IMG/VR virus record: IMGVR_UViG_3300032257_000012
Coordinates: 1 to 61,060 of that record
Length of the DNA: 61,060 nucleotides
DNA from: a virus
Taxonomy: Duplodnaviria; Caudoviricetes
Direction: 5' to 3' (one strand)
Made by a program: the position numbers and the translations under genes. Below, piece by piece: positions 9,149 to 45,711 of this stretch; within the stretch, counting starts at the first letter, position 1; each line of letters starts with the position of its first letter. A model generated the notes under the pieces. That model was not told where the DNA came from. It saw nothing but the letters and a program-made list of their open reading frames with translations, and made no database searches.

Positions 9149-9442
9149 AGCATTGACCTTTGTGGTTGTTGTGTGGTATTGTGCGGGTATGAAAATAACA
9201 GTAGATACAAGCGATACCATGGCAGCTTCCATTTTAGCTTTACTGGAGCGGCAAATCAATTGCAATGAGATATATGTCGAGGCGGTCCTATATGACTACA
9301 TTCGGTACATCTGGTGTGGCGATCCTTTTTGCGAGACTGGAATTAGGCTCACTGGCAGCACAATGTCCTACCATAAGATCCCAGTGATTAAGGTTAAAAA
9401 GAAACACCAAAATGTAGATGTTGTGAGGATGGGGGATTTGGA

Positions 9443-10637: not shown

Positions 10638-10705
10638 CCTAAATCTCCATTTAATACTCGTGTGGGATCATTTTACCACAAACAATAATTCCACAGGACA
10701 ATTTT

Positions 10706-12781: not shown

Positions 12782-12782
12782 A

Positions 12783-13148: not shown

Positions 13149-13159
13149 GGAATCAAAAA

Positions 13160-14207: not shown

Positions 14208-14247
14208 CAATCAACCGGACAGGGACGTCCATTTTTAGGAGAGGTTT

Positions 14248-16131: not shown

Positions 16132-16298
16132 AAATTGAGATCCCAGATAACGACGTGCTCGCCGTGACTAAGTTTCTACAACTGCCCCCCGTTAAAAGAG
16201 AGGTGCTATCCAACAGAATTTTTGAAGTATGGGATGATCTTTACTATTGGAAAGATCCCCCACAACAACGTCTTGATTTCACCCAAGGAGAAAACTAA

Positions 16299-16982: not shown

Positions 16983-17078
16983 TGGGATACTTACTAATCG
17001 CTTGTCTTCTCGCCTATGTCATAGGCACTGGGTTTATTTTTTGGTATGTTTGGCACGCGATGCGGGACGTCCTAAACC

Positions 17079-27663: not shown

Positions 27664-28445
27664 GTTCTAATACCTTGTAGCGTTAGTGTAGTAGACAGTG
27701 TGGTGTGATTGCCGTCGTAGGTGGGGGTGTTTGGGCGGCCTTTTAACCACACATACACCACATCTTCTGGGTAATCTTCATTCCAAAGGAACCAAAAAGG
27801 TCTTTCAAGCGCGTAGTCGATGAAAGTCTGCCAGTCGCCGCGCATAAATGCCAAGGACTCGACGCTCACTGAGATGCTAAATTCCACCCCTCGCTTTATT
27901 ACTGAACGCCCAATAAATTCCCCATTGACGCTCATCGAGTTTGTTATAGTATCCATAACCGCCCCTCTGGGCAGTTGACCGCCCGACCTTACCGCCTTTG
28001 GAAGTCTGAACACCTCTCCAATAGTTGCGCCCGCCACTCTCAACGGCTCCGTTGGCGTACCGATTGGATCAAACAATAGCCTAAAATACCTGTCTTGTTG
28101 TGCTGCCCCCGGCTCGATCCAAATGAAGGGGGAGTCATCCGCAAGTACTTGGTAGCTCGACACGTCGGTGGGCGTGGTAAATGCTTGCGCGGAGTCTCGT
28201 TGTAATTTCACTTGATACCCGGCGCTGGCTAAGTTGTGTCTCGCCAGCGCAAAATAGTCCACTGGAATTATGGACCCACTTCCAGCCAAGATGTAGTGTT
28301 GTACCGCCGGAGTGGGGGGCTGCCAATAGTCGTAGGTGTTTCCGTTGTACGAATTTTGATACTCAAACCCCAGCGCATCTTCGTCGGTCTCTGTGTTTGG
28401 TAGGGTGTTGAAGAAGTTATCAAACCCTATAACTGGCTTTCCCAT
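27660..28445 (-). CDS. distal tail protein
   Basis: Directly follows the tape measure; DYFALARHNL, PFWFLWN. Confidence 0.65.
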   Translation of the reverse strand: MGKPVIGFDNFFNTLPNTETDEDALGFEYQNSYNGNTYDYWQPPTPAVQHYILAGSGSIIPVDYFALARHNLASAGYQVKLQRDSAQAFTTPTDVSSYQVLADDSPFIWIEPGAAQQDRYFRLLFDPIGTPTEPLRVAGATIGEVFRLPKAVRSGGQLPRGAVMDTITNSMSVNGEFIGRSVIKRGVEFSISVSVESLAFMRGDWQTFIDYALERPFWFLWNEDYPEDVVYVWLKGRPNTPTYDGNHTTLSTTLTLQGIRT

Positions 28446-28446
28446 G

Positions 28447-30744
28447 CTATCCTACCTTTAATCCGGTTACGTTGCCGCTTCGTATTTCTTCATCAATACG
28501 CTGTAATAATCTTCGTACCCCACGACTACTAACCAACTCGTCCTCGTCGTCTGCTAGATTCACCGTCACCTCAGTGCCCGACGCTGCGGCGCCCTCGAAG
28601 GTAGGCTGTGACACAGAAGATGGGCCACTTACTCCGCCTCCAGAACCCCTAGACCCTGCGCCCGTCGATCCACCAGAACTTCCATAGGTAGTGGCGGCGA
28701 TAGAGGCTACATTAGCCGCCGTCGCTATGCCTGTAGCAATGGCAAGTGGGAAGCCACCTTCCGCATATGCTTTCTGGACCGCTAAATATCCTTCTACTAG
28801 TGCAATAGATCCCGTCGTCGCCTTCGCAACATTAAATCTTCCACGCCCTTCGTTTTGGGCTAACCCCATAATCGTGGAAGATGCAGACGCAAGCTGTGAA
28901 ACAATGGCTTGGCTTGATGCAATTTCGATGCTTCTAAGTTGTTTGGCCGATTTTGATTTAATCGCAGCTATCGCCTGCGCCCCTTGCGCCTCCGAGGTTT
29001 GCTTTCTACGCACGGCCTCTTCAACAATCGCAATCTCTTCCTCTTTTGCCCTATTTATGGCCTCTACTTCATTGTCGAGAGAGGAAACCAGCGCATCGAA
29101 ATTTTCTTTCGCCGCGTCGTCGAGCATTTTTTTCTTATCATCTATTGCTTTTTTCGCCTTCTCAGCTTCGATTTCTTCTTTAGTTTTGAAATCTCCAGGG
29201 TCCGGCGCTAGCTCCAATTTTATAGCATCGAAAGCGTCCGCAGATATCTTCCCTTCGTCGAGTTTCTTCTTGAAAATGGCTATCGCTTCGGCGGATTCGC
29301 GGAACGCCGCTTCGACGGGGAAGATCTTATCTAATAGTCGTTGGTAGGTTGCTTCGTCTTTTTTAAGCTGTGCGGCCGCTTTTTTCCTTGCGGCTTCCGC
29401 TTCTTCTTCAGCATCCACCTCTTTTTGAAGCGCGGCGATACGTCGTCGCTGCGCTTCCTTGGTGCGCTCTTCCGCGCCTTCTAGAAACTCAAGTGCGGCC
29501 GTAGCTCCTTTCAAACTTTGGCGGAGCCTTGGAAGTTCTTTGTTTGCTCGCGCAACTCGCGTCACGAATCCTGGGAGGGTGGAGTCTCCTAACACACTTA
29601 TTGCGGATTCATTTTCTTCGATGGATTGGGTGAGCAGCCCAATGTCTATTTTCAACTCTTGGACTTGGCGGGTGTCACTCACTGCCACCCCATATTCTTT
29701 TAGTCGGGCAATAAGATGGTCTGCGGCGTTTGCTTGGTCTTCTATGTTTGTGGAGGTAGTGCCGAGTGCGATTCCCCAGCTTGCAAGCTGTTGTAGGTTT
29801 GGCTGTACGAGATCTTGAAAGGTTTTCACCTTCGCCGACATAGCCTCTAGTGGTGCGAGTATTTCTAAGATTTTATCTGATGCGAACCCTAGCACAACTG
29901 AGACGGCTTTTAGTGCGTCGGATTTTCCGAGCTGGATCATCAACCGTTCCCAGCGCTCGCCGAGAGTGTCTACCACCCCCGCGAATCCAGACGCAGCCTG
30001 GGTGGCGACGCCCCCAACTTGCCCTGCTACTACGTCGAGGATGACGCTTTGGGCTTCTTGTAGTCGGTTTGTTTTCTCTAACAGTTTAATTAAGTTTTCT
30101 TGTTCCGCAGAAAACGACACACCTTGTCGTGTGAGAGACTTCAATCCTTTGCTTGGGAGTTCTAATACCTTAGCAAGCTGTGTTGCTGCGTTGGTTACTG
30201 TTCCAAACCCGGTGCTTGCTAGATCTTGTGCAGCTCTTAGGGTTTGGTCGAAAGCATCTCCAGTGATGCTTTTGAAAGTCAGTACTTTGGTGGCAGCCCT
30301 CTCAATCTCTGACGTAGATGCAAGTGTAGCCTCGCCAATGTCTCTAGCCAACACCTGAATGTCTTCCACCGTTTTGCCAGCCGCGCCCCCTGTGGCTTTT
30401 AGGACGCCTTCCATCGCACCTAGCCTAACTTCGGCCTCGCTCACCGCATTCGACACGTTGCGGAATCCAGCAGCGACACCCGCCATGGTGACGGATAACA
30501 GCGCCGCAGCCAGGTTCCCCTTCTCCACCAACGTAGTAAAAGAGTTTATCCTACCTGCCACACTCCCTAGCGGCCCGTCGAGGACTGCTACGGAGGTTGC
30601 CATCCTTCGTAGGTTAGCAACAAAAGAGCTCGACGTTTTCTTGGTAGTTTTTTTCACCCTATTAACCACGTTAGCTGCGCGATTAATATTTTTCACAAAA
30701 TCGGCAACGTCGGCAGTAAGTTGTACGTCAATTCGTTCCGTCAT
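28447..30744 (-). CDS. tape measure protein
   Basis: 765 aa, Ala-rich and helical; QLAKVLELP..GLKSLTRQGVSFS; follows the chaperone genes. Confidence 0.9.
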   Translation of the reverse strand: MTERIDVQLTADVADFVKNINRAANVVNRVKKTTKKTSSSFVANLRRMATSVAVLDGPLGSVAGRINSFTTLVEKGNLAAALLSVTMAGVAAGFRNVSNAVSEAEVRLGAMEGVLKATGGAAGKTVEDIQVLARDIGEATLASTSEIERAATKVLTFKSITGDAFDQTLRAAQDLASTGFGTVTNAATQLAKVLELPSKGLKSLTRQGVSFSAEQENLIKLLEKTNRLQEAQSVILDVVAGQVGGVATQAASGFAGVVDTLGERWERLMIQLGKSDALKAVSVVLGFASDKILEILAPLEAMSAKVKTFQDLVQPNLQQLASWGIALGTTSTNIEDQANAADHLIARLKEYGVAVSDTRQVQELKIDIGLLTQSIEENESAISVLGDSTLPGFVTRVARANKELPRLRQSLKGATAALEFLEGAEERTKEAQRRRIAALQKEVDAEEEAEAARKKAAAQLKKDEATYQRLLDKIFPVEAAFRESAEAIAIFKKKLDEGKISADAFDAIKLELAPDPGDFKTKEEIEAEKAKKAIDDKKKMLDDAAKENFDALVSSLDNEVEAINRAKEEEIAIVEEAVRRKQTSEAQGAQAIAAIKSKSAKQLRSIEIASSQAIVSQLASASSTIMGLAQNEGRGRFNVAKATTGSIALVEGYLAVQKAYAEGGFPLAIATGIATAANVASIAATTYGSSGGSTGAGSRGSGGGVSGPSSVSQPTFEGAAASGTEVTVNLADDEDELVSSRGVRRLLQRIDEEIRSGNVTGLKVG

Positions 30745-31354
30745 TTCTTGAGCTTCCTTTTCAATTCCTCAAACTCAGATCTGTCCATCGTCTCCGCAGG
30801 TTTGACAGGTGCGTTCGATTTGCGGATGCCCTCATTTGCCGCCAACAATTCGTGTTGGGTGGACTTCCAGAAAGTATCTGGCGTCCACTTCAACACTCCC
30901 AGCGCAAATTCTAGGTGGGGGGTGAAGTTGGTATGGTCGAGGGCTTGTGCTTTTTTGCCTCTTCAAGCTCTTTATCGGTGGGGGCCGTCTCTTCCTGCGC
31001 TAGGTCGCTTCCAAGTACGGCGTTCGTTAGTAACATTGTGAGCGTACTAAGAGACCCTTCATCATCCGCCTTCATACCTTGGGTTAAGACGATCCCTGGA
31101 CCATCTTTGAAGATCATTTGTTGGATGTCTTTGAGAGACAGTTTAGTGGTTGGGTCCGCTGCCTTGTGCGCGGTATACACTAACGCTGCCACGTGATCAA
31201 TTGGAACGTCGCCATTTAGGCATTTGCCATACACCTTGAGAAGCGAAGTTCCGGCTAGTGCCTCAAAATGCACCATCATTTCATACGTGGGGCGAAGCAC
31301 TAATTGCTGCCCGCCCAATTCCAACATTACTTCGCCGCGCTGTTTGTTATGCAT
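30741..31354 (-). CDS. tail assembly chaperone (30911-31354) with a -1 frameshift extension to 30741
   Basis: Slippery A AAA AAG at 30950-30956 (minus strand). The -1 frame reads ...FALGVLKWTPDTFWKSTQHEL...* and ends in an ATGA overlap with the tape measure start. Confidence 0.85.
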
Positions 31355-32528: not shown

Positions 32529-32909
32529 TCACCCCGTGTTGGTAAATGCCATTCTCATGGCCTTTGTCAGATCCTCTAGCAATATTCTTTGATTCCGTCG
32601 CAGCGGTATTACTAAGTACTTGGCTTGTCCATTGCGATGTATAACAAACAGATCCTCATGTACTGCTAGCGCGTAGTCAACTTTGTCATTCCCAAATGAG
32701 ATGGTCACTACGCGCTTGCTTCCTTCCTTGGTCAACGCCACCCGTCCACTGTCATGTAGTGCGCCAGTATCAATTGGCACTAAATCTTTAGCTTCTGTTA
32801 AGATTTTGTTGGCAGACTTTAGTAATTGTCTGTCCATTTCAAAGGGTATTTTTCGGGCAGCTCTCCCAAGAAATGCCTTAAACTTGTCAAGCCCTTTGAA
32901 TTTTATCAT
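32529..32909 (-). CDS. HK97 gp10-like neck protein
   Basis: VPIDTGALHDSG...YALAVHE...QAKYL. Confidence 0.8.
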   Translation of the reverse strand: MIKFKGLDKFKAFLGRAARKIPFEMDRQLLKSANKILTEAKDLVPIDTGALHDSGRVALTKEGSKRVVTISFGNDKVDYALAVHEDLFVIHRNGQAKYLVIPLRRNQRILLEDLTKAMRMAFTNTG

Positions 32910-33223
32910 TATCCGAACATTATTTTTGTGTGGCTGAAGCCAGTTTCATCGTGAAATTCGTCGGCGGAGAGGATCGGTGGGGTAGTGCCGTCTGGAAGTG
33001 TTATCTGGTCCACTTCTTGTACGTCGGCGGCGCCACACCAAATCATTCCTTTGGCCAATTTCTCGCTCCCGTCGCTGCGTCGTATCAGAGTGCGCTTATA
33101 TATAACCCGCGCAGGATACGATACCGCCGTTCCGTAGGTTGGGGCAGAGTATTTATCCCTTGATGCAAATGGCGCTATAGTTATCGACGCAGCGGCGCAG
33201 TCCGTGAATTCATCAAAAAACAT
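32909..33223 (-). CDS. head closure protein
   Basis: Position; DKYSAPTYG...QITLPDG. Confidence 0.65.
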   Translation of the reverse strand: MFFDEFTDCAAASITIAPFASRDKYSAPTYGTAVSYPARVIYKRTLIRRSDGSEKLAKGMIWCGAADVQEVDQITLPDGTTPPILSADEFHDETGFSHTKIMFG

Positions 33224-33287: not shown

Positions 33288-33674
33288 CTAAGAAACCTTA
33301 AACGTTGGTTTTACAAGATCAGCGGTATTTTCTACAGTTTTTTTGCGGCTGACAGAAATTCCGCCCGCGTAGGGTCCGGCGAGAGCGACGTTCGCACGGT
33401 CCTCAAGGGTTTGTAGTACCTCTAAATAATTCTTGTACCTGGTGGACGCAGAGATCTTTAGATCGCCAACTTGCTTATCGACCTCTCGACCGAGCTTCAT
33501 TGCGATGGATTTTGCGACAACGACGGCTGCAAGCAGCGTCGTCGCTTCGGTGCCCAGCACATAGAGAATTTCCTCATCCTGTACCAATGGGGTGGTTGTG
33601 GTTGTGTCTCCGATTAGGAAGCGTACTTCGTCCACCGGGGTATCTCGGGGATCATGTGTGTACGACCATGTCAC
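33288..33674 (-). CDS. head-tail adaptor protein
   Basis: MTWSY..DP....DEVRFLIGDT.....QDEEI. Confidence 0.75.
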   Translation of the reverse strand: MTWSYTHDPRDTPVDEVRFLIGDTTTTTPLVQDEEILYVLGTEATTLLAAVVVAKSIAMKLGREVDKQVGDLKISASTRYKNYLEVLQTLEDRANVALAGPYAGGISVSRKKTVENTADLVKPTFKVS

Positions 33675-33889: not shown

Positions 33890-34696
33890 ATGAAGTCCCC
33901 TGAAGAACTATCAGAAAACAAGTTGATGACAATTGGAGGGTATACCACGAGGGAAATAGTTTGGTTTTCATGCGGGGTGGCGTCTGCTGTTGCTGCAAAG
34001 TTAGCTTCTGAGCAATACCCCAATTGCGAAATAGTTTATTGCGATACTTTAAAATATGAACATTCTGATAATGCTAGGTTTATGAAAGATGTTGAAAAAT
34101 GGACGGGTAAGGAAATAAAAATAATAAAATCAGAAAAGTTTAACGACATTTATGATGTCTTTAATAGGACTAAGTGGTTGGCAGGGGTAGCTGGGGCTAG
34201 ATGCACTCTTGAGTTAAAATCCAGGGTTAGAAAAGCTTACCAGGAAGTTGGTGATTTGCATATATTCGGGCTTACTTTTGATGAGCAAAAAAGAATAGAT
34301 CGTTTCGAAAGATCCAATCAAGATATTGAACTTTGCTGGATTCTAAAAGAAGCAGGTGTGACAAAATCTGATTGCTATAATATTATTCGTAATGCTTGCA
34401 TTGAAATTCCGGCAATGTATAAGCTTGGGTACAATAACAACAATTGCATTGGATGTGTAAAAGGAGGGGCAGGGTATTGGAATAAGATTAGAACTGACTT
34501 CCCTGATACTTTCGAGAGGATGTCAAAAATGGAGCGAACATTAAATGTTGCAATAAATAAATCATATGCAGGAGACGGAAAAAGGAAAAGAGTATTTCTT
34601 GATGAGCTTCCTGTAGATGCAGGTCGGTTCAGTAAGAATGAAGACATAGAGTGCGGCGTCATGTGTATTAACCCGACGTTAGATTTAACTGGCTAG
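33890..34696 (+). CDS. PAPS-reductase-like (adenine nucleotide alpha hydrolase) protein
   Basis: WFSCGVASA PP-loop variant, HSDNARF, GYNNNNCIGCVKGG; noticeably AT-rich; own promoter-like TTGTCT-N17-TAATAT at 33809-33837. Confidence 0.8.
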   Translation: MKSPEELSENKLMTIGGYTTREIVWFSCGVASAVAAKLASEQYPNCEIVYCDTLKYEHSDNARFMKDVEKWTGKEIKIIKSEKFNDIYDVFNRTKWLAGVAGARCTLELKSRVRKAYQEVGDLHIFGLTFDEQKRIDRFERSNQDIELCWILKEAGVTKSDCYNIIRNACIEIPAMYKLGYNNNNCIGCVKGGAGYWNKIRTDFPDTFERMSKMERTLNVAINKSYAGDGKRKRVFLDELPVDAGRFSKNEDIECGVMCINPTLDLTG

Positions 34697-34713
34697 AAAT
34701 TTGGAGAAACGAA

Positions 34714-34932
34714 ATGAAACTTACACTTATTAGATATAAAGAGGAAAAGCAGCCAGGAACAGGCGACGTGGTAACTCCAGGGTTGGTTAGCGCCGATATT
34801 GATGGCGCTAACCCTATTGATTTAGTTACGCTTGAGGCCGCATGGTATAACAATAAACGTGGGATTTCATGCTTGCCACCGGGGTATCTCGGGGGTCTCC
34901 ACTATATGTCCAGGTCATGTGCCGGTCCTTAA
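34714..34932 (+). pseudogene. truncated DUF5675-like gene fragment
   Basis: LTLIR...TLEAAWYNNKRGISCLPPG matches the N-half of 8660-9148 and breaks at the 19-bp repeat. Confidence 0.6.
34876..34918 (-). pseudogene. orphan second 5' end of the head-tail adaptor gene
   Basis: AAGGA RBS then MTWTYSGDPRDTPV versus MTWSYTHDPRDTPV at 33674; 19 bp identical (33632-33650 = 34876-34894). Confidence 0.75.
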
Positions 34933-34988
34933 TGTTGGTTTAATTGTTTGATTATACCATGTTTGTTCTACTTAATTTGGAGAAATTT

Positions 34989-35357
34989 ATGAGCGAAGAA
35001 TACCCGTTGTACCCAAGTCTTTCTGAGCAAGGAAAAGTTGAAGCGCAGAGAATAATGGACAGCTTTAAGCCCAAAATATCCGCGATGATTGAGGATTTGA
35101 TGCGGGAATTGTACATGGATGTGAGTTTTTACGTTGAAAGTGATCATTGGTGCAACTATAGAAATGCACTTATGGACGGCCTCAAAGGATATGGAGACGG
35201 TGGGAGTGCGCACGCCAGCGAGTTTAAAGAGCTTAGGCAAGCTATCTACACCGCCAACAAAGATGAGATCAATAAAGATTTGAACCAAGACCTTGTGAAG
35301 GAGAATGCCGCCTTAGAGCAGCGGATACGAGATATGGAAAGCACGCTTTGGAGATAG
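34989..35357 (+). CDS. hypothetical protein
   Basis: GGAG RBS; ORF track. Confidence 0.6.
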   Translation: MSEEYPLYPSLSEQGKVEAQRIMDSFKPKISAMIEDLMRELYMDVSFYVESDHWCNYRNALMDGLKGYGDGGSAHASEFKELRQAIYTANKDEINKDLNQDLVKENAALEQRIRDMESTLWR

Positions 35358-35386
35358 CCCCCAACACTAAACATTTGGAGAAATTT

Positions 35387-35644
35387 ATGTCCGTACTACA
35401 AGCTGTTTCAATTTTATCGCCACTATCTAGCCAGGAGTTGTCCATTTTAACAGGGATTCACGATAGGTACACCGGTATGGAGATCGCCGACAAGATGTGT
35501 CTCTCCCCCAAGACAGTATGTACCTATCGGTATCGTATGTACGCCAAACTCGTGGTGCGTACCGACGCTGCTGCTGCGGTACTTTATGCACGTCGTCTCG
35601 TCGGGGCGGGGAAATCTCTTGTTGACGTTGTGCCTATTTGTTGA
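35387..35644 (+). CDS. stand-alone LuxR-type HTH resembling the GacA/UvrY C-terminal domain
   Basis: LSSQEL...EIADKMCLSPKTVCTYRYRMYAKL; no receiver domain. Confidence 0.8.
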   Translation: MSVLQAVSILSPLSSQELSILTGIHDRYTGMEIADKMCLSPKTVCTYRYRMYAKLVVRTDAAAAVLYARRLVGAGKSLVDVVPIC

Positions 35645-35680
35645 TATATTGATCACTCTATCACTTACTAGGAAATTTAC

Positions 35681-36304
35681 ATGGAAAACTACGTTTCGCC
35701 TACCCAAGAGATATCCACTACTACAACTTTGGAAATCGCAAAAGGAGTGGGGACTAACCATAAATATGTAATGGCATTACTCGACAAATACCGAGAAGGA
35801 CAAAACTTTCTAAATGCGCCATGTGAAATATTGACGAAGAAAACGGCGTCCGGCGGAGGGCGCCCGACGCGGTATGCCGTTCTCACAGAGCCGCAAACAA
35901 GTTTCTTACTTATGTTAATGGCCAATTCTCCTGCGGTTATGGAGTTTAAACGAAAATTTATGGAAAACTTTCGTAGGGTAGGGGGGAGGGTGGGTATGCC
36001 GGTTGTGTTTGGAGAGGTGTCCGAGCGGGTTGGGCATCTTTATGTTTTGGAAAACCCAACAAACAGCCTATGTAAAATAGGTCGGTCGGTAAATCCAGAA
36101 GTTCGCATGTCCGGAATTGCCACCCAGGCTGGATTCTCCCCCACTAGGACGTGGATCTCCCCTCCGCTGCTGGAATATGGAAAATTCGAAGCGCTACTTC
36201 TACTTGCATTTGAAGATTGTCGTGGCGTTGGTGAGTGGGTGGTTGCTGATTTCGACGCTGTTGTCAAAAAGGGCGTCGAAATCAGCAAGCAGTTTGTTGT
36301 GTAG
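35681..36304 (+). CDS. Rha-like N-terminus fused to a GIY-YIG (T5orf172-like) domain
   Basis: TTLEIAKGVGTNHKYV...GGRPTRYAVLTEPQ, then LYVLEN...CKIGRSVNPEVR; promoter TTGACG-N17-TATATT at 35622-35650. Confidence 0.75.
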   Translation: MENYVSPTQEISTTTTLEIAKGVGTNHKYVMALLDKYREGQNFLNAPCEILTKKTASGGGRPTRYAVLTEPQTSFLLMLMANSPAVMEFKRKFMENFRRVGGRVGMPVVFGEVSERVGHLYVLENPTNSLCKIGRSVNPEVRMSGIATQAGFSPTRTWISPPLLEYGKFEALLLLAFEDCRGVGEWVVADFDAVVKKGVEISKQFVV

Positions 36305-36625: not shown

Positions 36626-37600
36626 CTACGCTACCGCAGATGCGAAGAAGTATCCTAAGTCAGCGCCTACAACTTTATCAACATAGGCATACTCTCCTTC
36701 GATACGGTCGGATTTCAAATGCTCCATTGGGAAGTTGCGCATTGCAACCCCTGGCGTACCTTGGCCAGAAATGCCAGACCAAACAAACGTGTAGCCAGCC
36801 GCAGGCTCCATCAATCCAGCCGAAGCCGGGGAGTACGTCAACAGTGCGTTGTTGCCCGCCACCATTGCGTTAGCGACCGTTACACCTTTGGGAGATGTCA
36901 CGTAACTTGCTTTGGAGACTAAGATCTCGCCGATATCCAAGAACTTAGCAATCATATCAGTCGTAATAGACTCCGAAGAAGTGTATTTGAACTGGTCCCG
37001 GATAAGGGGGTGGTTGGTTAATGTTTGGAACACTTTGAAACCGAGGGTCAGTTTGTTCGGCTCAAACCCAGTCTCTAACAGGAATTGAAACTTGGCCGCG
37101 TCGATGTCCGCTTTAGGATCACTTGCGCCATCGTTCCATTGTAAGAATTGCCCAGCACCAGGTGCCGCCGCAACGCCGGTCACGTCGGTGGACCATACGC
37201 CAGTGGTGAAGTATTTGGATACCCAAGCACGCTCACGATTCAACAAGAACAAACGAGAAACAAATTCTGTTGCTGTTGATTCCAAATCTAATTGAGGATC
37301 AGAGTTATCAACTAATTCCCAATCAAGATCTTTGTGGTACGCGTAAGTTTGTGTTAAGTACACGTCGGTCGAAATGTCGAACCCGCTGCCCGCAGATTCA
37401 GCTCCGGATTTACGCGGCAACACTAAGTCACGTCGGCCCATTTCCTTTTCGAAAATGTAGTACTCGTCGCTCTTGTGTTCCACTGAGACGGAGGGAAACA
37501 CTCTCTCCGCGATGAAATGCGAATCATCTTGAAGATAGGCGATTGAAATGTTCGTCAATGCCTGGTCAATATGGACACGACGGTTATTTGGTGATGGCAT
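36626..37600 (-). CDS. major capsid protein
   Basis: HIDQALTNISIAY...FIAERVFPSVSV...; 324 aa; AAGGAG RBS; position. Confidence 0.88.
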   Translation of the reverse strand: MPSPNNRRVHIDQALTNISIAYLQDDSHFIAERVFPSVSVEHKSDEYYIFEKEMGRRDLVLPRKSGAESAGSGFDISTDVYLTQTYAYHKDLDWELVDNSDPQLDLESTATEFVSRLFLLNRERAWVSKYFTTGVWSTDVTGVAAAPGAGQFLQWNDGASDPKADIDAAKFQFLLETGFEPNKLTLGFKVFQTLTNHPLIRDQFKYTSSESITTDMIAKFLDIGEILVSKASYVTSPKGVTVANAMVAGNNALLTYSPASAGLMEPAAGYTFVWSGISGQGTPGVAMRNFPMEHLKSDRIEGEYAYVDKVVGADLGYFFASAVA

Positions 37601-38074: not shown

Positions 38075-39106
38075 TTATTTAGACTTGCGTTGCGCAGCCC
38101 ATAAGTCAGGGTTGCGATTCTTAGCCAGCACAAACGCTTTTGCCTTTGTCACTTTCTCTTCTTTCTCAATAACATCCGCTTTTGCTACCAATTGCTCATA
38201 CGCATCCGCGATGTCCTCTGAGCCAGCGCCGCCCGCTTCGTGGCCAAGTGACTTCGCCATCGCAGCGTTCCCAGCAATCAAAAGTTCTTCGATCTTTTTG
38301 GCGGCGTCGGGTGCGGCCTTGGCGATGTCATGGATCGACTTCGCAATGTCATCAGCTTCTCCCGGTAAATTGCCCATCGTAGCTGATACTCGCTTAGCGA
38401 TATCCGCCAGCTCGGTCTGTTCCTTCATTTTAGCAATGACTTGTGCTTGCACATTAATTAAGTCATTTTGCTTTTTGATCTCTTCGTCTTGCGCAGTGAA
38501 TCGTTTGGCCAATTCTTTGTCCATCTCCTCGTCTTCCTCTGGTGGAGTAGGTGGCTCGTCTTCCATTTTAGCCGCTGGAGGCATTACTTCCTCTGGTGGG
38601 GTAGGGGGTTTGTCTTCCATTTTCCCCATCCCTTCGATCATGGCTTTAACATCAGCCATGGCGTTGTCGATCATTGCTTGCACTTCTTCTGGGGTCATCT
38701 CAATTTCTCCGGTTCGTTTAAGGATTTCTGGTATATTTTCTTCATCTGGGTGCAACTTCTTCCATGCCGCCAACACCTTGTCTTTCACTCCAGGCAAATC
38801 CTTAGCCGGTATCTGTACAGGGTTTCCCCTAAATCCATTTGGTCCAAGTGCCGCCAGCGCCGCACCTACCACATTCGGATCAACGTCGCCGCCTGGCGAT
38901 GATGTCAATCTTAGTTTCCAACTCTTTGGGTGTGCAGGATCGCCTACATAGGCGTAATCCTTCATTGGATATTGCACACCATGTTCTGTTTTAAATCCTT
39001 CTTTTGGCGTCTGACGTTTAAATAAGATTATTTTAGCATCTTCGTTGGCACCTTCATCGACGAAAGATACTTCCTTTACTAGTAGATTCGTCAATTTAGT
39101 TGTCAA
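38075..39106 (-). CDS. capsid scaffold/maturation protein
   Basis: EVSFVDEGAN N-terminus, Pro/Glu linker and coiled coil. Confidence 0.7.
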   Translation of the reverse strand: MTTKLTNLLVKEVSFVDEGANEDAKIILFKRQTPKEGFKTEHGVQYPMKDYAYVGDPAHPKSWKLRLTSSPGGDVDPNVVGAALAALGPNGFRGNPVQIPAKDLPGVKDKVLAAWKKLHPDEENIPEILKRTGEIEMTPEEVQAMIDNAMADVKAMIEGMGKMEDKPPTPPEEVMPPAAKMEDEPPTPPEEDEEMDKELAKRFTAQDEEIKKQNDLINVQAQVIAKMKEQTELADIAKRVSATMGNLPGEADDIAKSIHDIAKAAPDAAKKIEELLIAGNAAMAKSLGHEAGGAGSEDIADAYEQLVAKADVIEKEEKVTKAKAFVLAKNRNPDLWAAQRKSK

Positions 39107-39507
39107 ACTTCCTCCCTCGTGGCTGAGCCACCGATGCTAAACGCCGTTATTTCACCATTCTTAATTCTATCAAACACATCCTTGTCGGCCCTAAATCCAA
39201 TCCACCATCCAACTGGTAGTATTCCTTGGGGGATTCCTAGCGCTTCTTGCTTTTCCTTGGAAAACACCATGGACTCGACCAACGTTCCAACTCCGGTAAA
39301 CTCATGCATGTCGCCTGCGTCTCGGTACTCTTCAACATATAGATACGCTGTCTCTTCCAATGTATCTATTTCTATGATATCTCCCTGAAGATCTTCTACC
39401 ACATTTCCCTGAAGGTCCTCTATCACACTTGCCCAGCCGAAAACTAGTCTTTTTTCAAGTTCTACGTTACTGATTTTACCAACGATTGTAAAGTTTTTAG
39501 TTGACAT
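39103..39507 (-). CDS. XkdF-like prohead protease domain protein
   Basis: RLVFGWASV...DLQGD...MHE...GWWIGF...FSIGG. Confidence 0.78.
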   Translation of the reverse strand: MSTKNFTIVGKISNVELEKRLVFGWASVIEDLQGNVVEDLQGDIIEIDTLEETAYLYVEEYRDAGDMHEFTGVGTLVESMVFSKEKQEALGIPQGILPVGWWIGFRADKDVFDRIKNGEITAFSIGGSATREEV

Positions 39508-39511
39508 TTTA

Positions 39512-40942
39512 TTATTCCCCAGAAGTATCCGCCGATGGTTGGTCAAAGCTCTCCCCAGCTTCGGGGGGCTCTCCTTCCGCCGCTCGCGTCGGCGCCTGTG
39601 GGGATGGGGGTGTGTCTTCCGGTGGGCCGCCAAGCGAAACCACCTTAGTTGGGAGGTTTGCAGCTTCCATTAGTGTGTCTTGTAGATCGTCGTCGGGGAA
39701 CAGGCTTGCCCCTGAAGAGGCTAAGTTTCTAATATATGCTCCAAGCTCTTTTAGATCCGGCGTTTCTACGTCAACGTGTGTTATCCTTGGCAAGTCGCCC
39801 GACACATTTCCATTTAAAGCAAATAGTTGGGGCACCGCATGTTCTGTCATTTTGTCGGTCACTTCGTCCAACATCACTCCCAACGTTTGCCCGAAAATAG
39901 ATGTTTTAGAATCTGCCAAACTCAGCGAGCCAACTTTATCAGATCCAAGGAGAATGAAATCCGCCAAAAAACTCATCGTAATTCGTTGGTCGTATCGATT
40001 GATAATTTCCGAAGTGTCAAACTGTTTCTGTCCGCCCGTACTCAACAGCTCGAAAGAGTATAGATTGTTCCCTGATCGGTCAGTGTCGCCGGGAAGGATA
40101 AGACCCGCTTGTTCATCGTTGCGGATGTTTTCTATAATATTTTTAGCTTCTTCATATATTAATTTCTCTGATGGTGTCGCATTCTCTGACATCACCCGCG
40201 ACGGCAGCCGCATAAATGGTAGGCCAGCCAGATCTCGCTCCAACCCAATCCCCTCAATTTCCTCTACGCGTCTTTTAAAGGTGTGGGGGCGAAGGCAATT
40301 CCGTAGCGCACTTTTGCCTTCCGGGTTGTCGTTGTATGTGTCTATTTTGTAGTGGATAAATTCACTTGCTGGGATGAATACTCGGCCCGTTTTTTTATTC
40401 CGTCGAGTGTTGTAGTAAAGATTTTGCCAAACGCCGAGCACGTCGTCATGGGGGGAGATATCCCATTCTTCTATCGTGTGCTGCGCTCGCGGCGCAAATT
40501 TCGCCCATCCGATGCGACCGTCGTTGAATTTTGAGTTGAACATTTTCAACGGGTGTCGCCCGTTTCTCTTTTTCAGCACGACTTCTTGGATCGCAAACCC
40601 ATAGGGTATGAAGGACAACGCTTGCGCGACCGTGCTTTTCATAGGGGTTTGCATGTCTTCCAAACATGTTTCCAGAAACTCGGCGTCTGCACGGTGCCGG
40701 GGGAGGTCTGAGTAGGGCTCGACCTTAATTTTAACTCCCTTCAGAATGTTTATTATGGCATACAGAATCGCACCAACGACGGGATCGTCGTCCGTCATCT
40801 CTTTTATTTTTTTGTACTTATTCTGTCCCGAAAAATCCGGGTTGTCCTCTTCAAAAATCCGTCGGCCAGAATGTTTTAGTCCAGTACCACCACGCTCAGT
40901 GTAGAGGGATGGTGTGATGAATGTTTCTTTGTTATCTGCCAT
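39512..40942 (-). CDS. portal protein (DUF935-like)
   Basis: YGFAIQE, NPEGKSALR, EGIGLERDLAGLP. Confidence 0.88.
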   Translation of the reverse strand: MADNKETFITPSLYTERGGTGLKHSGRRIFEEDNPDFSGQNKYKKIKEMTDDDPVVGAILYAIINILKGVKIKVEPYSDLPRHRADAEFLETCLEDMQTPMKSTVAQALSFIPYGFAIQEVVLKKRNGRHPLKMFNSKFNDGRIGWAKFAPRAQHTIEEWDISPHDDVLGVWQNLYYNTRRNKKTGRVFIPASEFIHYKIDTYNDNPEGKSALRNCLRPHTFKRRVEEIEGIGLERDLAGLPFMRLPSRVMSENATPSEKLIYEEAKNIIENIRNDEQAGLILPGDTDRSGNNLYSFELLSTGGQKQFDTSEIINRYDQRITMSFLADFILLGSDKVGSLSLADSKTSIFGQTLGVMLDEVTDKMTEHAVPQLFALNGNVSGDLPRITHVDVETPDLKELGAYIRNLASSGASLFPDDDLQDTLMEAANLPTKVVSLGGPPEDTPPSPQAPTRAAEGEPPEAGESFDQPSADTSGE

Positions 40943-42330
40943 TATATCGCCTCGGATATCACAACCGTGTGGCTGCTTACCATCATTATGTTATTGTAGA
41001 TGTCGCAAATTGACGGATAATTCCCCGTCGTACCCGTCGCAACGACGTTATCAACCCATGTCGCTCCGTCGTCATTTGATACCAATAATTTTATTTCCGC
41101 GATAGCGGCACCACTTCGGGTAGGCGACATCACAATTCCGATGTTTGTTAGATATCCACCACAGCGCATGTTCAACGCCCATCCGGCGATGGGGGATTGT
41201 ACTAACGTCGGGGCGACGGTGCCGAGGCCCGCGTCGGACAGTCTCCAAATTTCCCCGCCATTTCCTCCAAACATCCAATATCCATTTCTATGCGCGACCG
41301 TTGTGTAGGCGCCTGGTGTCGCCGCTTCGGTGCGAGCGTTCCACGTGGAACCCCCATCAGTTGAGTAGCAGTACCCAATGTCCCCTGTGTTATTTGTGTC
41401 TTGTCCGACCGCAACAATTATCAGCGGGTCAGTGTTAGACTCTGCGATTGCATGTATGTCCCAATCTCCTGCGGTCCCCGGCAATGCTACGGTCGCCCAT
41501 GTCTGCGCCCCGACGTCCCGACGCGCCAAAGATACTGTCCCAAGATCTTTCGACCCTATAAACACATCTCCGGTCGAGTGGAGTAATGGGGTGGTGAGAG
41601 TAGATACTCCGCCGGGAAGGGTTTCTCCGGTAGCGTCCCATACATCAGTGTCGCCACGATATTTAAGTACGGCGTTTGATAGGTCGAACACTAAAAAATC
41701 GTACACAGACGCATCTTTCAATTCTACGATGTTCACGGGGGTGTACGCCGACATTTCTTGTGTGCCCACCGCCCAAGTCTGCCCTTCGTCCGTTGATTTA
41801 TATGGTGTGGATGTACTATCCAAGACGTACCACCCCAAATTCTTAGTGGAGTGTACGACCAATGACTCCGGTCCCATAACCACGGACCCTGGTGCAAACT
41901 TCTCTACCCAGTTCACTCCGTTTGCGTTAGGTGGCAGCAAGAAGGTGGGAATACCCGTTACCAACAAAGTGAACGTCGCTGCGACGGCATCTAAGTGCTC
42001 GGCGGCTATTTCAAATCCAGACACAAAGCAAGCACCTGTCAGCTCTTTAGAATTTGGAAATATAATTTTCAGGTCAATGGGGGCATTGCTAAGTGCTGCA
42101 TCCTGAATGATCTCAAGGCTCGCGGCGTCTGAGAACACGGCGCCCCCTGAGATGGTAAGTGCCCGCAGCCCCGTATCCCCTAAGAGAGTTATCCACCCGT
42201 TGTCATCGTCGGTAGTGATGTCAGCACCGTCGTTCGATATTGAGATGGTACGGGTGCGCATGAGCGCAATGGTCGTCCAAACCGTAGCGACCTCAACCTG
42301 TAATTTTATGTCTCTTCCTCGAAACGCCAT
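40942..42330 (-). CDS. tail-tube-like domain fused to an Asp-box beta-propeller (fusion B)
   Basis: First ~130 aa align with 31363-31776; then STDEGQTW, STDGGSTW, SNDDGATW. Confidence 0.85.
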   Translation of the reverse strand: MAFRGRDIKLQVEVATVWTTIALMRTRTISISNDGADITTDDDNGWITLLGDTGLRALTISGGAVFSDAASLEIIQDAALSNAPIDLKIIFPNSKELTGACFVSGFEIAAEHLDAVAATFTLLVTGIPTFLLPPNANGVNWVEKFAPGSVVMGPESLVVHSTKNLGWYVLDSTSTPYKSTDEGQTWAVGTQEMSAYTPVNIVELKDASVYDFLVFDLSNAVLKYRGDTDVWDATGETLPGGVSTLTTPLLHSTGDVFIGSKDLGTVSLARRDVGAQTWATVALPGTAGDWDIHAIAESNTDPLIIVAVGQDTNNTGDIGYCYSTDGGSTWNARTEAATPGAYTTVAHRNGYWMFGGNGGEIWRLSDAGLGTVAPTLVQSPIAGWALNMRCGGYLTNIGIVMSPTRSGAAIAEIKLLVSNDDGATWVDNVVATGTTGNYPSICDIYNNIMMVSSHTVVISEAI

Positions 42331-42336
42331 GGCTGG

Positions 42337-43728
42337 TTATCCGTATGTGAACAATTTATTTACATTGGTGCCAACGCCTGAGAAGTATAGTTTGCCTCCT
42401 ACCTCCATAATATCCTTCATCACATCTGCTGTACCTCCGGCGGGCCGATGTACCACACTCCACGACACACCTTCATCCTGTGAGGTCACAAACACCGCTC
42501 GATTTGACGCTCCGGTGTCACTGCCCACCCCGTAGATAAAATTATCTCTTGATGTGAACGGCGACATTCTGTGTACTGTCAATGTGCCGGCGCTTTGCAC
42601 TTTCGTAAATGTCACACCATCATCCACGCTCTTGTATGTTACACTGGGGGCCGAGCCACCTGCTATCGGAGCTGTTGCGTACCACACCCCGTTGACATAT
42701 GTCATAGACCCATAGATAAGTTGGCTACTAGAAGAAATCATCTCCCCCGCGCCCGCAAAATGATGTGCCCATGTCGCGCCTTCGTCTGTTGATCTCCAGA
42801 AACTCGCCCCTTCCGTCCCTGCGATATACCCACCTACGGCACATATCGTGGTACCGTTATTTCCAAATGCAAGTGGGTTCCGGCTGGTAACGGCGGGGGT
42901 AGATACAAACGCATTGTATGGGGTGGAATCCGCTAGAAATTCTCCGGGGAAAGTCTGTGACCCAACTAGTATCTTATTCGCGCCAGGTTGTATAAGGTTG
43001 CTTAGCAAGCTGTTCGTCAACACCGACGCCCAAGTCACCCCGTCGTCCAACGACCGCGACACCACGTTGGCGTTGTGGACGGCCAACATAATACCGTCGT
43101 CGGTTCTCAGTATCGAGTGTTGTGGGGTGCTGTTTCCCGTCGAAAGTGTGTTTCCCACCAGCGCCCACGACACACCTTGGTCGGTGGACACGGCGAATCT
43201 ATGCGCACTTCCAACGAGCACCAGCGCGTACATTGTGGTTGGGATTGTTGGGTGTACAGACAGTGCAACGACGCTCACGACGCTCGCGTCTAAAGTGGTA
43301 AAATCAAACAGCTCAGTCAGCACGGCGGGAGGCAGGGTAATTGCCTGCGCTGCCGTACTTGCCAAAGTGAACGTCGCTGCGACGGCATCTAAGTGCTCGG
43401 CGGCTATTTCGAAGTTAGAAACGTGAAAAAACCCAGTCAGCTCAGTCACGTTCGGGAATACCAACTTAATCTCAACGGGGGTGTCAGAGTATGAAGCATC
43501 CTGAAGGATCTCAAGGCTCGCGGCGTCTGAGAACACGGCGCCCCCTGAGAGCCCGACGGCTCTAGCCCCCGTATCTCCTAACAGAGTTGTCCATCCTAGT
43601 GCATCATCTGAGGTAATGTCCACTGCGTCATTAGAAATACTTATGGTTCTAGATCGCATGAGCGCAACGGTCGTCCAAACCGTAGCCACCTTAACCTGTA
43701 ATTTTATATCTCTTCCTCGAAATGCCAT
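42337..43728 (-). CDS. tail-tube-like domain fused to an Asp-box beta-propeller (fusion A)
   Basis: MAFRGRDIKLQV...TTLLGDTGARAV; then STDQGVSW, SLDDGVTW, STDEGATW, SVDDGVTF, SQDEGVSW. Confidence 0.85.
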   Translation of the reverse strand: MAFRGRDIKLQVKVATVWTTVALMRSRTISISNDAVDITSDDALGWTTLLGDTGARAVGLSGGAVFSDAASLEILQDASYSDTPVEIKLVFPNVTELTGFFHVSNFEIAAEHLDAVAATFTLASTAAQAITLPPAVLTELFDFTTLDASVVSVVALSVHPTIPTTMYALVLVGSAHRFAVSTDQGVSWALVGNTLSTGNSTPQHSILRTDDGIMLAVHNANVVSRSLDDGVTWASVLTNSLLSNLIQPGANKILVGSQTFPGEFLADSTPYNAFVSTPAVTSRNPLAFGNNGTTICAVGGYIAGTEGASFWRSTDEGATWAHHFAGAGEMISSSSQLIYGSMTYVNGVWYATAPIAGGSAPSVTYKSVDDGVTFTKVQSAGTLTVHRMSPFTSRDNFIYGVGSDTGASNRAVFVTSQDEGVSWSVVHRPAGGTADVMKDIMEVGGKLYFSGVGTNVNKLFTYG

Positions 43729-43778: not shown

Positions 43779-45281
43779 CTACTTAAACAAATTTTTCTTC
43801 TTAATACTCGTCGGTGAAACCGTAAAAACTTGTGAATCTTCCCGAATATACTTCAAAAACTGCGACAACGCGTCGATTGGGTCCCACAATGGGGGGGCAG
43901 GGAAGTGAGCTAGGCACTTTGTGAACATCTCCATCCAAGGAAATCGGTCAAAATCCTCTTCTGGGATCGTTAAAAACCCCCTTTCTAAGAGGTTTGTCTG
44001 ATTATCCATACGAATTATCTTTGGTTCTCTGGGTATCATACCCACCACAGGGAGGTTTGTGTTCTCAATCAGGTCTTGTAGGAGGGATGTGCCGCTTGAT
44101 TTGTCCTCAATAATGATCGTGGATGGGGCGTAATGTTCGTCCATATTGATTATTTTGGCCTGTAAGTCGGGGTATTTGACCCTTTCCAGCCACATATCCA
44201 CCAATCTCCACTGTAGTATGCGCGTATCGTCCGTATATGGTCTCTGAAACACCAATCCAACACTAGGATCGTGTATTTCAGAGTCTTTTTGCGCTGTATC
44301 GAACGATATTATCGTTTCTGAGACATCTTCGGGGGCTAAGTGCTCTTTCCATCTCGGGAACCAGTCCAAAACGATCCGCCCACCGCCTTTTGGTGATGGG
44401 TTTTGCTGCATTTGTCCCTCGAACCCGTAAGATCCAAGTCGATGGCGCATTGCTTGCACCTCTTCTGGTCCGTTTCTTGCTGGATTTAGTAGGTGGCCCT
44501 CTTCGCGCACCCATTCTTTGCCAGAGATGGGGAATATGAATATCGTCTTCTTCTCGGCGACCCGTGGAATCTTCAAAAGCTCCCACGAAGCATGGTCCTT
44601 GCTGTCTAAAATATGCCCGCAGGGGTCATTTACGGCCAACCTTTGCATTACCAGCACTTCGTGTGCGGTTTTTGGGTTGTTTTTGCGTGTAGAGTACGTC
44701 TCATCAAGCCATATGTTGGCGGCTTCACGGGCCGCTCCCGACGCCGCCTGCGTTGGATCCACCAAATCATCAGATATTAGTACCTGGCCTCCCATCCCGA
44801 TGCACGACGCCCCGACGCTCGTCGCAATGCGATGGCCACGCCTGGTTGTGGCGAATTGCGCTTTTTCGTTCTGTGCTTGCGCAATTATTGTCTCCGGGAA
44901 GAGTTGACGATACCACTCCGCCTCGATCACTGAGCGTGTGTCTACGCTATGTCCCGTACTCAACTTCGCGGCGTAGCTCGCGGCGAGAATCTGCTCACTC
45001 GGATTATGCCCCAGCAAAAATGCTGGCCACGCCACCGTCACAGATATCGATTTCAACTCACGGGGGGGAATATTTACGATGAGATTCTTAATTTGGTTGT
45101 TCGATACCGCTACAAGGTATTCCGCAATCAAATCAATATGCGGGCTGTGCATATATTCGGTGCCAGGATTGAGATGTTGGAACACCCGTCGTATGAAAGC
45201 GCCTAAGTCGTCACGCGTTCTGCGGCGATCTAACAAAGCTTGGGCGGCCCGACGACGGATTATATCACTCATCTGCGTCAT
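43779..45281 (-). CDS. terL: terminase large subunit
   Basis: NIPPRELKS Walker A, ISDDLVDP Walker B, VMQRL, nuclease SFDTA and IEDKSSG, DPIDALSQ. Confidence 0.93.
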   Translation of the reverse strand: MTQMSDIIRRRAAQALLDRRRTRDDLGAFIRRVFQHLNPGTEYMHSPHIDLIAEYLVAVSNNQIKNLIVNIPPRELKSISVTVAWPAFLLGHNPSEQILAASYAAKLSTGHSVDTRSVIEAEWYRQLFPETIIAQAQNEKAQFATTRRGHRIATSVGASCIGMGGQVLISDDLVDPTQAASGAAREAANIWLDETYSTRKNNPKTAHEVLVMQRLAVNDPCGHILDSKDHASWELLKIPRVAEKKTIFIFPISGKEWVREEGHLLNPARNGPEEVQAMRHRLGSYGFEGQMQQNPSPKGGGRIVLDWFPRWKEHLAPEDVSETIISFDTAQKDSEIHDPSVGLVFQRPYTDDTRILQWRLVDMWLERVKYPDLQAKIINMDEHYAPSTIIIEDKSSGTSLLQDLIENTNLPVVGMIPREPKIIRMDNQTNLLERGFLTIPEEDFDRFPWMEMFTKCLAHFPAPPLWDPIDALSQFLKYIREDSQVFTVSPTSIKKKNLFK

Positions 45282-45711
45282 CCATCAAAGCGCTGTAGTT
45301 GGCTACGTCTTCTTCGGATGCTGTGCCGTGTGCTATCTTCTCTAGTAGGTCGTCTGGGATAGTTGTCAACGATCCGCCGTCCCAGGTGGGGGGCGCTGCA
45401 ATCGCCTTCTTATCTGGTAGCACTTTATTCAAGCACCTAAACAGTAGCTCGGAACGGAGTTTCAACACACCGACTTGGGTCTGAGCTGTGGCGGTGAGCG
45501 TTATCGCGGCGTCTAAATTATCTACGTCCTTCAAATCCTCATATATAGTAGTTAGCTCTTGATCTATGCCGACCACTTCATCTATGATAGCGGTCGGAGA
45601 TAGGCCGCTGGCTGGGTCGGCGTCGCTGCCTCGGAGGTGCTCTTGTTGTGTGGGGGTAGCTCGCGAGGGTTGAACTCGGCCCCGGCGAACGATTAGTGTT
45701 TGTTTTGACAT
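45265..45711 (-). CDS. probable terminase small subunit
   Basis: Overlaps the terL start; helical; LNKVLPDKKA. Confidence 0.6.
   Translation of the reverse strand: MSKQTLIVRRGRVQPSRATPTQQEHLRGSDADPASGLSPTAIIDEVVGIDQELTTIYEDLKDVDNLDAAITLTATAQTQVGVLKLRSELLFRCLNKVLPDKKAIAAPPTWDGGSLTTIPDDLLEKIAHGTASEEDVANYSALMDDADE

Follow-up and report, generated by a model that had tools for sequence, protein, structure and literature searches.

In siphoviruses, tail decoration is known in the form of small immunoglobulin (Ig)-like or carbohydrate-binding modules carried on the major tube protein or on a frameshift product. Lambda gpV and T5 pb6 (Ig domains), SPP1 gp17.1* and the 936-phage protein TpeX each combine a tube subunit with an outward adhesin or carbohydrate-binding module; passages of one study describe the last two as minority tube subunits along the tail and report specific binding of host cells by the module of TpeX (PMC6669499). 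Extra rings of tube fold are also known. The published passages on T5 p140 place this tube paralog in a ring that separates the last ring of the tube from Dit, take the position of its gene as suggesting a baseplate component, and note T4 gp54 as a parallel (PMC10038345). Here we describe two genes, fusA and fusB, in the complete genome of an uncultured phage with direct terminal repeats (IMG/VR record IMGVR_UViG_3300032257_000012, 61,060 bp, hereafter the window). Each gene encodes a predicted tube domain followed by a predicted Asp-box beta-propeller. An earlier note, made from the sequence of this DNA alone, had reported two such fusions between terminase and portal, and both open reading frames (ORFs), their matches to the tube family PF06199 (~77 bits) and the flanking large terminase (TerL) and portal genes bear this out.

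With the tubes of the PF06199 family (TP901-1; g9, Rcc01691, 6TBA of the Rhodobacter capsulatus gene transfer agent, RcGTA), fusA and fusB share the N-terminal ~130 aa, the fold and a full-length profile match. Canonical members, however, are ~130-140 aa long, present as the sole copy and encoded upstream of the chaperone and tape measure (TMP) genes, whereas the fusions are extra copies, lie elsewhere and add a propeller of ~330 aa. Like T5 p140 and T4 gp54, they are tube-gene duplicates that coexist with the real tube, and in relatives of the window such a gene occupies the same post-TMP, pre-Dit position. That TMP-Dit position is absent from the window itself; it is found in the related genomes G001-G004 and probably on contig L004 (L-, G- and P-numbers are working labels for a locus or contig, a genome and a protein). 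As described in the available passages, T5 p140 is an undecorated trimer of tandem domains with 9% identity to pb6 (PMC10038345), whereas the fusions are single-domain, propeller-bearing and 41-50% identical to their tube. The modules of gpV, pb6, gp17.1* and TpeX are small (Ig, FN3 or BppA-like) and sit on the major subunit or a frameshift product. In contrast, the fusions are separate paralogous genes with exchangeable modules of ~35 kDa, predicted six- to seven-bladed propellers among them; the tube gene of the window ends in a stop and is followed by a chaperone-like ORF (no search for a frameshift site was made). The 'evolved' Dit of lactococcal and Lactobacillus phages and the insertion in the RcGTA Dit, as presented in parts of two papers, offer a further likeness, a hexameric tip ring with six sugar-binding modules (PMC6669499, PMC7296036). 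Those modules are internal insertions, whereas here a separate Dit-like gene is present and the carrier is a close copy of the tube with a C-terminal module.

The propellers themselves resemble those of Ycf48/HCF136, DAIP, GH74 and sortilin Vps10 in fold and repeat type, with no link to photosystem assembly. We found no published description of a tube-plus-propeller protein in the literature searched, which was covered partly at title level, and the siphophage papers on propellers, in the portions consulted, locate them in receptor-binding or fibre proteins and not in the tube (PMC7296036 among these). The tube-plus-propeller architecture is apparently an undescribed way to hang host-binding modules on tails.

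Predicted tube and propeller domains of fusA and fusB

Both fusions match PF06199 (Phage_tail_2; curated cut-off 23.8 bits, profile length 132) at their N-termini: fusA with 77.5 bits over residues 3-126 (profile positions 2-128) and fusB with 77.3 bits over residues 3-130 (positions 2-132). The stand-alone tube scores 106 bits. When the genome was searched with the profile, PF06199 was found at exactly three places in the record, with 80 bits for each of the two fusions. In BLASTP comparisons with the stand-alone tube, fusA was 49% identical (E 3e-35) and fusB 45% identical (E 9e-29). Across the whole domain (133 aa against 137 aa) the anchors share 41-50% of their residues with the tube of the same phage and align without large indels, and the stretch WTTLLGDTGARAV, singled out in the earlier note as common to fusA and the tube, is an exact match. 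A putative long loop, fusA residues 31-62, falls in the stretch that joins strands two and three of the model and is 75% identical to the tube, compared with 50% overall; its assignment is our own reading. In sections of the RcGTA study, the long loop of the tube protein is described as making disc-to-disc and tube-to-Dit contacts (PMC7296036).

We found similar agreement at the level of predicted structure. An AlphaFold2 (AF2) model of fusA built from a 59-row alignment had a mean predicted local distance difference test score (pLDDT) of 72.6 (a single-sequence run with a mean pLDDT of 32 was discarded). In the N-domain, 11 of the first 13 ten-residue blocks reached pLDDT 87-96, and the first block 75. 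Foldseek matched this domain to the RcGTA tube (6tba_50, TMt 0.74, root-mean-square deviation (rmsd) 3.7; 6toa_G, TMt 0.73) and to tube proteins in BFVD (TMt 0.80-0.88). A profile of 17 family members likewise matched the RcGTA tube Rcc01691 over the whole domain at 4e-31 in a PDB profile search. The tube fold, on which the reading of the earlier note turned, is thus predicted with a pLDDT of ~90 and a TM of 0.74 to 6tba. From the sequence comparisons and the model, we conclude that the N-termini of fusA and fusB are, as far as such predictions go, a true tube domain, paralogous to the phage's own tube. A complex prediction combining the stand-alone tube with the fusA N-domain gave a score of 0.01; controls were not run, and the result has no bearing either way.

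The C-terminal part of each protein carries strict Asp-boxes (S-x-D-x-G-x-T-W). As previously reported, both proteins have the repeat: five copies were counted in fusA, at residues 181, 226, 313, 367 and 416, and three in fusB, at residues 179, 323 and 418. In Pfam, fusA exceeds the curated cut-off for PF02012 (32.2 against 27) and falls below those for PF13088 (30.8 against 31.4) and PF15902 (26 against 33). Since BNR-type matches are mostly below cut-off, the assignment as a propeller also rests on PDB profile and fold searches. The 17-member profile matched GH74 proteins down to 7.6e-22 and Ycf48 at ~1e-16 to 2e-17, and its residues 161-422 align to residues 36-297 of the Ycf48 chain, which is the whole propeller. 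Matches to GH33 sialidases were weak (2.6e-9 and weaker) and confined to the Asp-box stretch. With Foldseek, the C-domain fitted Ycf48 (TMt 0.60-0.64; 5ojr 0.64) and DAIP (0.56), as well as GH74 and sortilin propellers. The fusA model contains 26 strands over residues 153-449, consistent with six to seven blades, at pLDDT ~47-85. Together, these results indicate that the C-terminal domain is probably, by sequence and model, an Asp-box propeller of the Ycf48/GH74/sortilin kind.

Whether such a propeller binds or cleaves its ligand bears on its role. The active site of GH74 enzymes lies between their two propellers. Both fusA and fusB contain a single propeller of ~310-330 aa, whereas the matched GH74 chains are 696-789 aa long, and neither protein contains a FRIP-type motif ([FYW]R[IVL]P or R[IVL]P). 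A single propeller, with its best whole-domain fits to non-enzymatic proteins, points to binding rather than catalysis.

In fold searches with the whole fusA model, BFVD also returned whole-length matches to several proteins of similar size: A0A1P8DJ39 (497 aa), A0A6J5T2L5 (440 aa) and Q6RCF0 (460 aa, TM 0.51), the 'outer capsid protein' of Vibrio phage VP2. These proteins might share the two-domain plan, but the models superpose with an rmsd of 12-20 and fusA had no sequence match among GenBank phages.

The two halves of the fusions have diverged to very different degrees. fusA and fusB are 72% identical in the N-domain and 29% in the propeller, in line with the earlier observation that the propellers are far more divergent than the tube halves; for the relatives' proteins P0054 and P0034 the values are 87% and 34%. 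A conserved anchor with a fast-diverging propeller is, as read from these sequences, a pattern typical of receptor-binding proteins. The tube halves of fusA and fusB also share DNA: the exact block already known from the earlier note is 48 nt long, and we found a further block of 44 nt. The 48-nt block closes the tube domain, which is the place one would expect for the junction of a swap. An ortholog of fusA on the related contig L107 allowed the two halves to be compared separately. The fusA propeller is 46% identical to that of the ortholog and 29% to that of fusB, whereas the fusA anchor is 72% identical to that of fusB and 50% to that of the ortholog. That the propeller is nearer L107 and the anchor nearer fusB suggests either that gene conversion has homogenised the two anchors of this genome, or that fusB arose when another propeller was grafted onto a copy of the fusA anchor. 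Either process fits a system of exchangeable modules. In both copies of the 48-nt block, a 5-bp GC hairpin is followed by a T-rich run (43372-43384 and 41974-41986, minus strand), which a scan flagged as terminator-like; the hairpin may be fortuitous, or may represent an RNA element or, at the border of the domain, a site of recombination.

Relatives and the wider fusion family

Relatives of this phage came to light through P0054 and P0034, whose four IMG/VR contigs amount to two phage types (G001 = G002 and G003 = G004). G001-G004 clearly match the window in TerL (1e-135), portal (1e-119), capsid (3e-92), tube (4e-55) and the 663-aa tail protein (1e-143), and the window tube is 63% identical to the tube of the relative L046. 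In these contigs the tube and chaperone genes are followed by TMP, the fusion, Dit and the tail protein, with exactly two PF06199 matches per record. At the loci L046-L049, L054-L056 and L059, the fusion lies between TMP (~1e-56) and dit261, a homolog of the Dit-like protein (~1e-52). A search with the Dit-like protein returned six contigs; a fusion lay between TMP and Dit in four of these, again the two types G001 = G002 and G003 = G004, and was absent from two. In the window, the TMP gene directly adjoins the Dit-like gene (27660-30744), so that the junction occupied by a single tube-propeller gene in relatives is empty. Between TerL and portal the situation is the opposite: in the relatives L060, L061 and L053 the TerL stop adjoins the portal start with nothing between, and none of 47 TerL-related loci had a tube-domain ORF near TerL in the fetched flanks of up to 6 kb. 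The terminase-portal position is thus peculiar to this genome. The earlier placement of the fusions outside the tail operon holds for the window and fails for the relatives, in which the gene is inside the operon.

Two further contigs carry a second tube-domain gene. The unrelated contig L004 has a tube gene, a chaperone gene and a TMP read as two ORFs; the next gene again has a tube domain and is cut by the contig end. The two TMP ORFs of L004 (4899-7172; 342 and 404 aa, consecutive) match the N- and C-terminal parts of TMP families, and may reflect a split gene, a frameshift or a sequencing error. L107, the sole metagenome match, comes from a closer relative (capsid 1e-124). It carries a tandem pair, P0003 (a tube domain with a 370-aa part that has no assignment) and then the fusA ortholog, which runs for at least 442 aa without stops. 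The pair follows the head genes and a Sak4-like insert. This conservation argues, at the level of sequence, that fusA is a real conserved gene and not a chance ORF. With three genome places, presence or absence in close relatives and occurrence singly or in pairs, the fusion behaves as an accessory, mobile tail gene.

Insertions of other kinds were also seen in these phages. The insert of L107 (3715-5047, minus strand) consists of a Sak4-like/phrog_1366 ATPase gene (301 aa, 2e-93) and a 146-aa ORF, on the opposite strand and between a head-tail gene and the fusions. An insertion of ~8 kb in other relatives (L052 ~1475-9923, G002; L053 ~9343-17000, G001) contains about ten ORFs of 120-494 aa, all on one strand. 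It separates the homologs of two window head-tail genes (33288-33674 and 32909-33223), and the window lacks it.

The fusions belong to a wider family. An exhaustive HMMER search gave 559 matches at E <= 1e-3, and we examined 155 sequences: the best 150 of these matches, three window proteins and two locus tubes. A tube domain was present in 133 of the 155, and 103 were plain tubes shorter than 200 aa. In 26, more than 120 aa came after an N-terminal tube domain, and 23 of these proteins are from outside this genome. All 23 had PF06199 at the N-terminus in a Pfam scan, and they form at least 23 clusters at 50% identity. Their C-terminal modules were BNR/Sortilin/PSII_BNR-like (8), Laminin_G_3 (5), FG-GAP (1), SPRY (1, weak) and weak or none (8). 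Tube-plus-BNR architectures, which the earlier note had proposed to look for, therefore recur in this set, and its 'swappable display cassette' fits both the 23 fusions with their varied modules and the L107 pair with its different partner module.

In a tree of tube domains, drawn from a sample biased to fusA-like sequences, 22 of 25 fusions fell in one 33-row clade that also holds the window tube (Shimodaira-Hasegawa-like approximate likelihood ratio test, SH-aLRT, 95). Within this clade, the window tube grouped with the relatives' tubes (SH-aLRT 94), fusA and fusB with P0003, P0013 and P0008 (98), and P0054 and P0034 with other fusions (90). On this tree, the carriers predate the split of these phages and are not fresh copies of the tube that each phage has. 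P0008, a 670-aa metagenomic protein, has a repeat-type insert of ~260 aa in the tube domain, after the first strand, and a further C-terminal part with weak matches to SGL, WD40 and PD40 propeller repeats; its predicted domain plan represents a second way of decorating the same anchor.

Other searches returned less. With tblastn, fusA had no match at 1e-5 in 50,697 GenBank phage records; the stand-alone tube matched 16 records at one place each, so that no second tube copy was found in GenBank phages at this sensitivity. A word-index homolog search with fusA gave fusB as the sole match, and one with the family alignment gave mostly cellular BNR proteins, the fusions recovered being P0023, P0101 and fusB. 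No loci for P0004 and P0014, and none for the window portal, were found in the viral contigs searched; P0004 and P0026 are each listed with a longest contig of 102,618 bp. In the ESM Atlas, 'Ycf48-like' proteins of 492-519 aa form viral clusters that have 53-95 members (scores 0.92-0.94). These clusters are leads only, and suggest a class of some size whose annotation refers to nothing but the propeller.

Layout of the late genes

The late genes of the window lie on the minus strand in the order 148-aa ORF, TerL, fusA, fusB, portal, protease, scaffold-like genes, capsid, two plus-strand inserts, head-tail genes, tube, chaperone-like gene, TMP, Dit-like gene and 663-aa tail protein. The stand-alone tube is in the canonical place, upstream of the chaperone-like and TMP genes, and is preceded by AAGGAG; fusA and fusB are not, as they lie between TerL and portal. 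An AAGGA stands 8 nt before the fusA ATG, fusB starts 6 nt past the fusA stop, and the fusB stop overlaps the portal ATG as TAATG.

Coordinates of the fusions, their shared DNA blocks and neighbouring late genes in the window
Feature	Position	Strand	Basis or remark
148-aa ORF, small-terminase position	45265-45711	-	position; no PHROG match
Large terminase, upstream flank of fusA/fusB	43779-45281	-	phrog_38 2.2e-75
fusA, 463 aa, tube domain and Asp-box propeller	42337-43728	-	ORF; PF06199 1.3e-21; BNR 32.2 bits
fusA tube domain, aa 1-133	~43330-43728		low-confidence linker ~aa 134-150; propeller ~aa 150-463
fusB, 462-aa paralog, tube domain and divergent propeller	40942-42330	-	ORF; PF06199 1.5e-21
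fusB tube domain, aa 1-133	~41932-42330	-	
44-nt exact block	43507-43550 = 42109-42152		middle of both tube domains
48-nt exact block	43363-43410 = 41965-42012		end of both tube domains; match extends on neither side
Mu-type portal, downstream flank of fusA/fusB	39512-40942	-	PF06074 1.9e-21; phrog_113 2.4e-70
Likely head maturation protease	39103-39633	-	best PHROG phrog_1530 ('DNA methyltransferase') 1.4e-22, above protease phrog_3017 7.7e-14
Major capsid protein	36626-37600	-	
Rha/anti-repressor-like protein with homing-endonuclease-like C-terminal part	35681-36304	+	
PAPS-reductase-like gene	33890-34696	+	phrog_424, 1.5e-48
Stand-alone major tube, 137 aa	31363-31776	-	PF06199 1.9e-30; phrog_1407
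Chaperone-like ORF	30911-31354	-	no PHROG match; homologs between tube and TMP in relatives
Tape measure gene (TMP)	28447-30744	-	PHROG TMP matches
Dit-like gene	27660-28445	-	homologs beside relatives' fusion gene

Between the capsid gene and the head-tail genes, the run of structural genes on the minus strand is broken by the two plus-strand genes (33890-36304). The 'DNA methyltransferase' label of phrog_1530 on the likely protease probably reflects a fused or mislabelled PHROG family. Among cultured phages, the nearest capsids are at most 43% identical and come from Arthrobacter, Roseobacter and Rhizobium phages, and the nearest tail proteins, ~26-31% identical, come from phages of marine gammaproteobacteria and cyanobacteria.

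Likely place and role in the virion

Our results suggest an explanation that we favour, and hold tentatively, in which the fusions form one or two defined distal rings beside Dit that carry adhesin propellers. fusA and fusB would then be accessory late structural genes of a siphovirus. Their N-domain, as a working copy of the TP901-1/GTA-type tube fold, would serve as an anchor within the stack of hexameric tube-fold rings, and the ~330-aa propeller would project outward on a short linker. The propeller would act as an auxiliary adhesin, probably for glycans, and would assist contact between the tail and the surface of the host. The likeliest place would be one or two distal rings next to the Dit ring, as for T5 p140 and T4 gp54. 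Six propellers (or 3+3, or 6+6) would then form a collar close to the tip of the tail. We infer incorporation into the virion, a distal position, sugar binding and a benefit to adsorption. Because the relatives' gene lies inside the tail operon, at the TMP-Dit junction, its place points to a distal ring at least as much as to scattered subunits.

Several observations weigh against a distal ring of adhesins. The window genes are not beside Dit but between terminase and portal, and the L107 pair follows the head genes; with a gene position this inconsistent, the position is a weak guide to the place in the virion. The fusions of G001-G004 probably trace to a single ancestral insertion, which reduces the independent 'after TMP' events to about two. 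T5 p140 is undecorated and only 9% identical to pb6, and decorated paralogs at 41-50% identity would fit co-polymerisation equally well. In addition, the backbone of the tube-domain tree is poorly resolved (66 of 129 inner branches open), the propeller model is of medium confidence (most ten-residue blocks at 47-85), and BNR matches are mostly sub-threshold, all of those in fusB falling below the curated cut-offs.

Co-polymerisation is the basis of an alternative that we consider possible, though doubtful, and that the earlier note had proposed, in which the fusions are minor tube subunits incorporated with the major tube, scattered or throughout, and display propellers along the whole tail. 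SPP1 (gp17.1*) and 936 phages (TpeX) achieve as much with frameshift products, whereas separate genes would do so here. The close resemblance of the anchors to the phage's own tube, with no large indels and a putative long loop conserved at 75%, speaks for this alternative; sub-stoichiometric tube subunits whose carbohydrate-binding modules bind host cells specifically are a precedent, according to passages of PMC6669499. Furthermore, three different genome positions imply no fixed assembly order, and the AAGGA of fusA and the tight packing of the pair with the portal gene mean that expression may be separate from that of the tube gene. Frameshift systems, however, keep the anchor identical to the major subunit, whereas here the anchors form separate lineages (SH-aLRT 98 against 94); the TMP-Dit position, seen in two or more lineages, suggests that the place is distal and defined; and six 35-kDa propellers per ring would, by a rough estimate, be crowded. 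A ring at another defined place, the neck or collar under the connector, would display the propellers as the neck-passage structures of 936 phages do. It would agree with genes that lie between terminase and portal and are translationally coupled to the latter, with an L107 pair that follows head and head-tail genes, and with the neck-borne carbohydrate-binding modules of 936 phages described in parts of PMC6669499. We regard it as very improbable: in relatives the gene comes after TMP, the 47 TerL loci lack a nearby tube-domain gene, and the RcGTA neck rings (stopper and terminator), in the sections of the structural study that treat them, are less than 19% identical to the tube and not close copies (PMC7296036).

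Two further alternatives remain. The propellers could be sialidase-like or GH74-like glycosidases that degrade capsule or exopolysaccharide, and the earlier note had named a glycosidase as one option. GH74 xyloglucanases (to 7.6e-22) and, more weakly, GH33 enzymes in the PDB profile search, together with GH74 among the top Foldseek matches, speak for such an activity. Nevertheless, the single ~310-330-aa propeller differs from the 700-790-aa, two-propeller GH74 plan, the best whole-domain fits are to the non-enzymatic Ycf48 and DAIP, the sialidase matches are confined to the Asp-box stretch, neither protein has FRIP or R[IVL]P, and sister fusions carry lectin-type modules, Laminin_G_3 and SPRY. 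A glycosidase is accordingly improbable, and we rejected a sialidase or GH74 enzyme as the identity of the domain. We give the lowest probability of all to proteins that are not virion parts, whether soluble ring-forming lectins, decoys against tube-sensing defences or decaying duplicates. Their unusual place outside the tail operon, and the lack of any fusA homolog among GenBank phage records (tblastn, 1e-5), would be in keeping with this. Yet both frames are intact and the fusA ortholog is 46-50% identical along its entire length. The family, moreover, is represented by at least 23 clusters and resides in the tail operon of relatives, and the genes share the strand of the late structural genes and are tightly packed with them. 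Chance ORFs and decaying duplicates, in particular, we rejected in view of the full-length conservation on L107.

A bolder reading, which we think rather unlikely as it stands, sees in the tube-domain carriers a dedicated lineage that gives GTA/TP901-type siphoviruses a plug-in platform of general use in host recognition. The docking place would be fixed despite the varying gene position, perhaps as a mixed A3B3 ring or two successive rings, and modules would be swapped at border DNA blocks. The C-terminal module (BNR or FG-GAP propeller, LamG, SPRY) would be exchanged by recombination, for example at the 48-nt block. If true, this platform would be a new class of anchor for receptor-binding proteins, distinct from attachment through Dit, Tal or fibres, and host range would be reprogrammed through module swaps on the tube ring.

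Together, the fusions unite two known ideas, decorated tube subunits and extra tube-fold rings. If present in the virion, they would define a modular class of auxiliary adhesins, easily recognised from a PF06199 domain with over 120 aa beyond it, that could aid host-range prediction for uncultured phages and provide a natural scaffold for the tail display of binding domains. In addition, the three positions of one cassette in related phages show structural accessory genes moving within the late operon.

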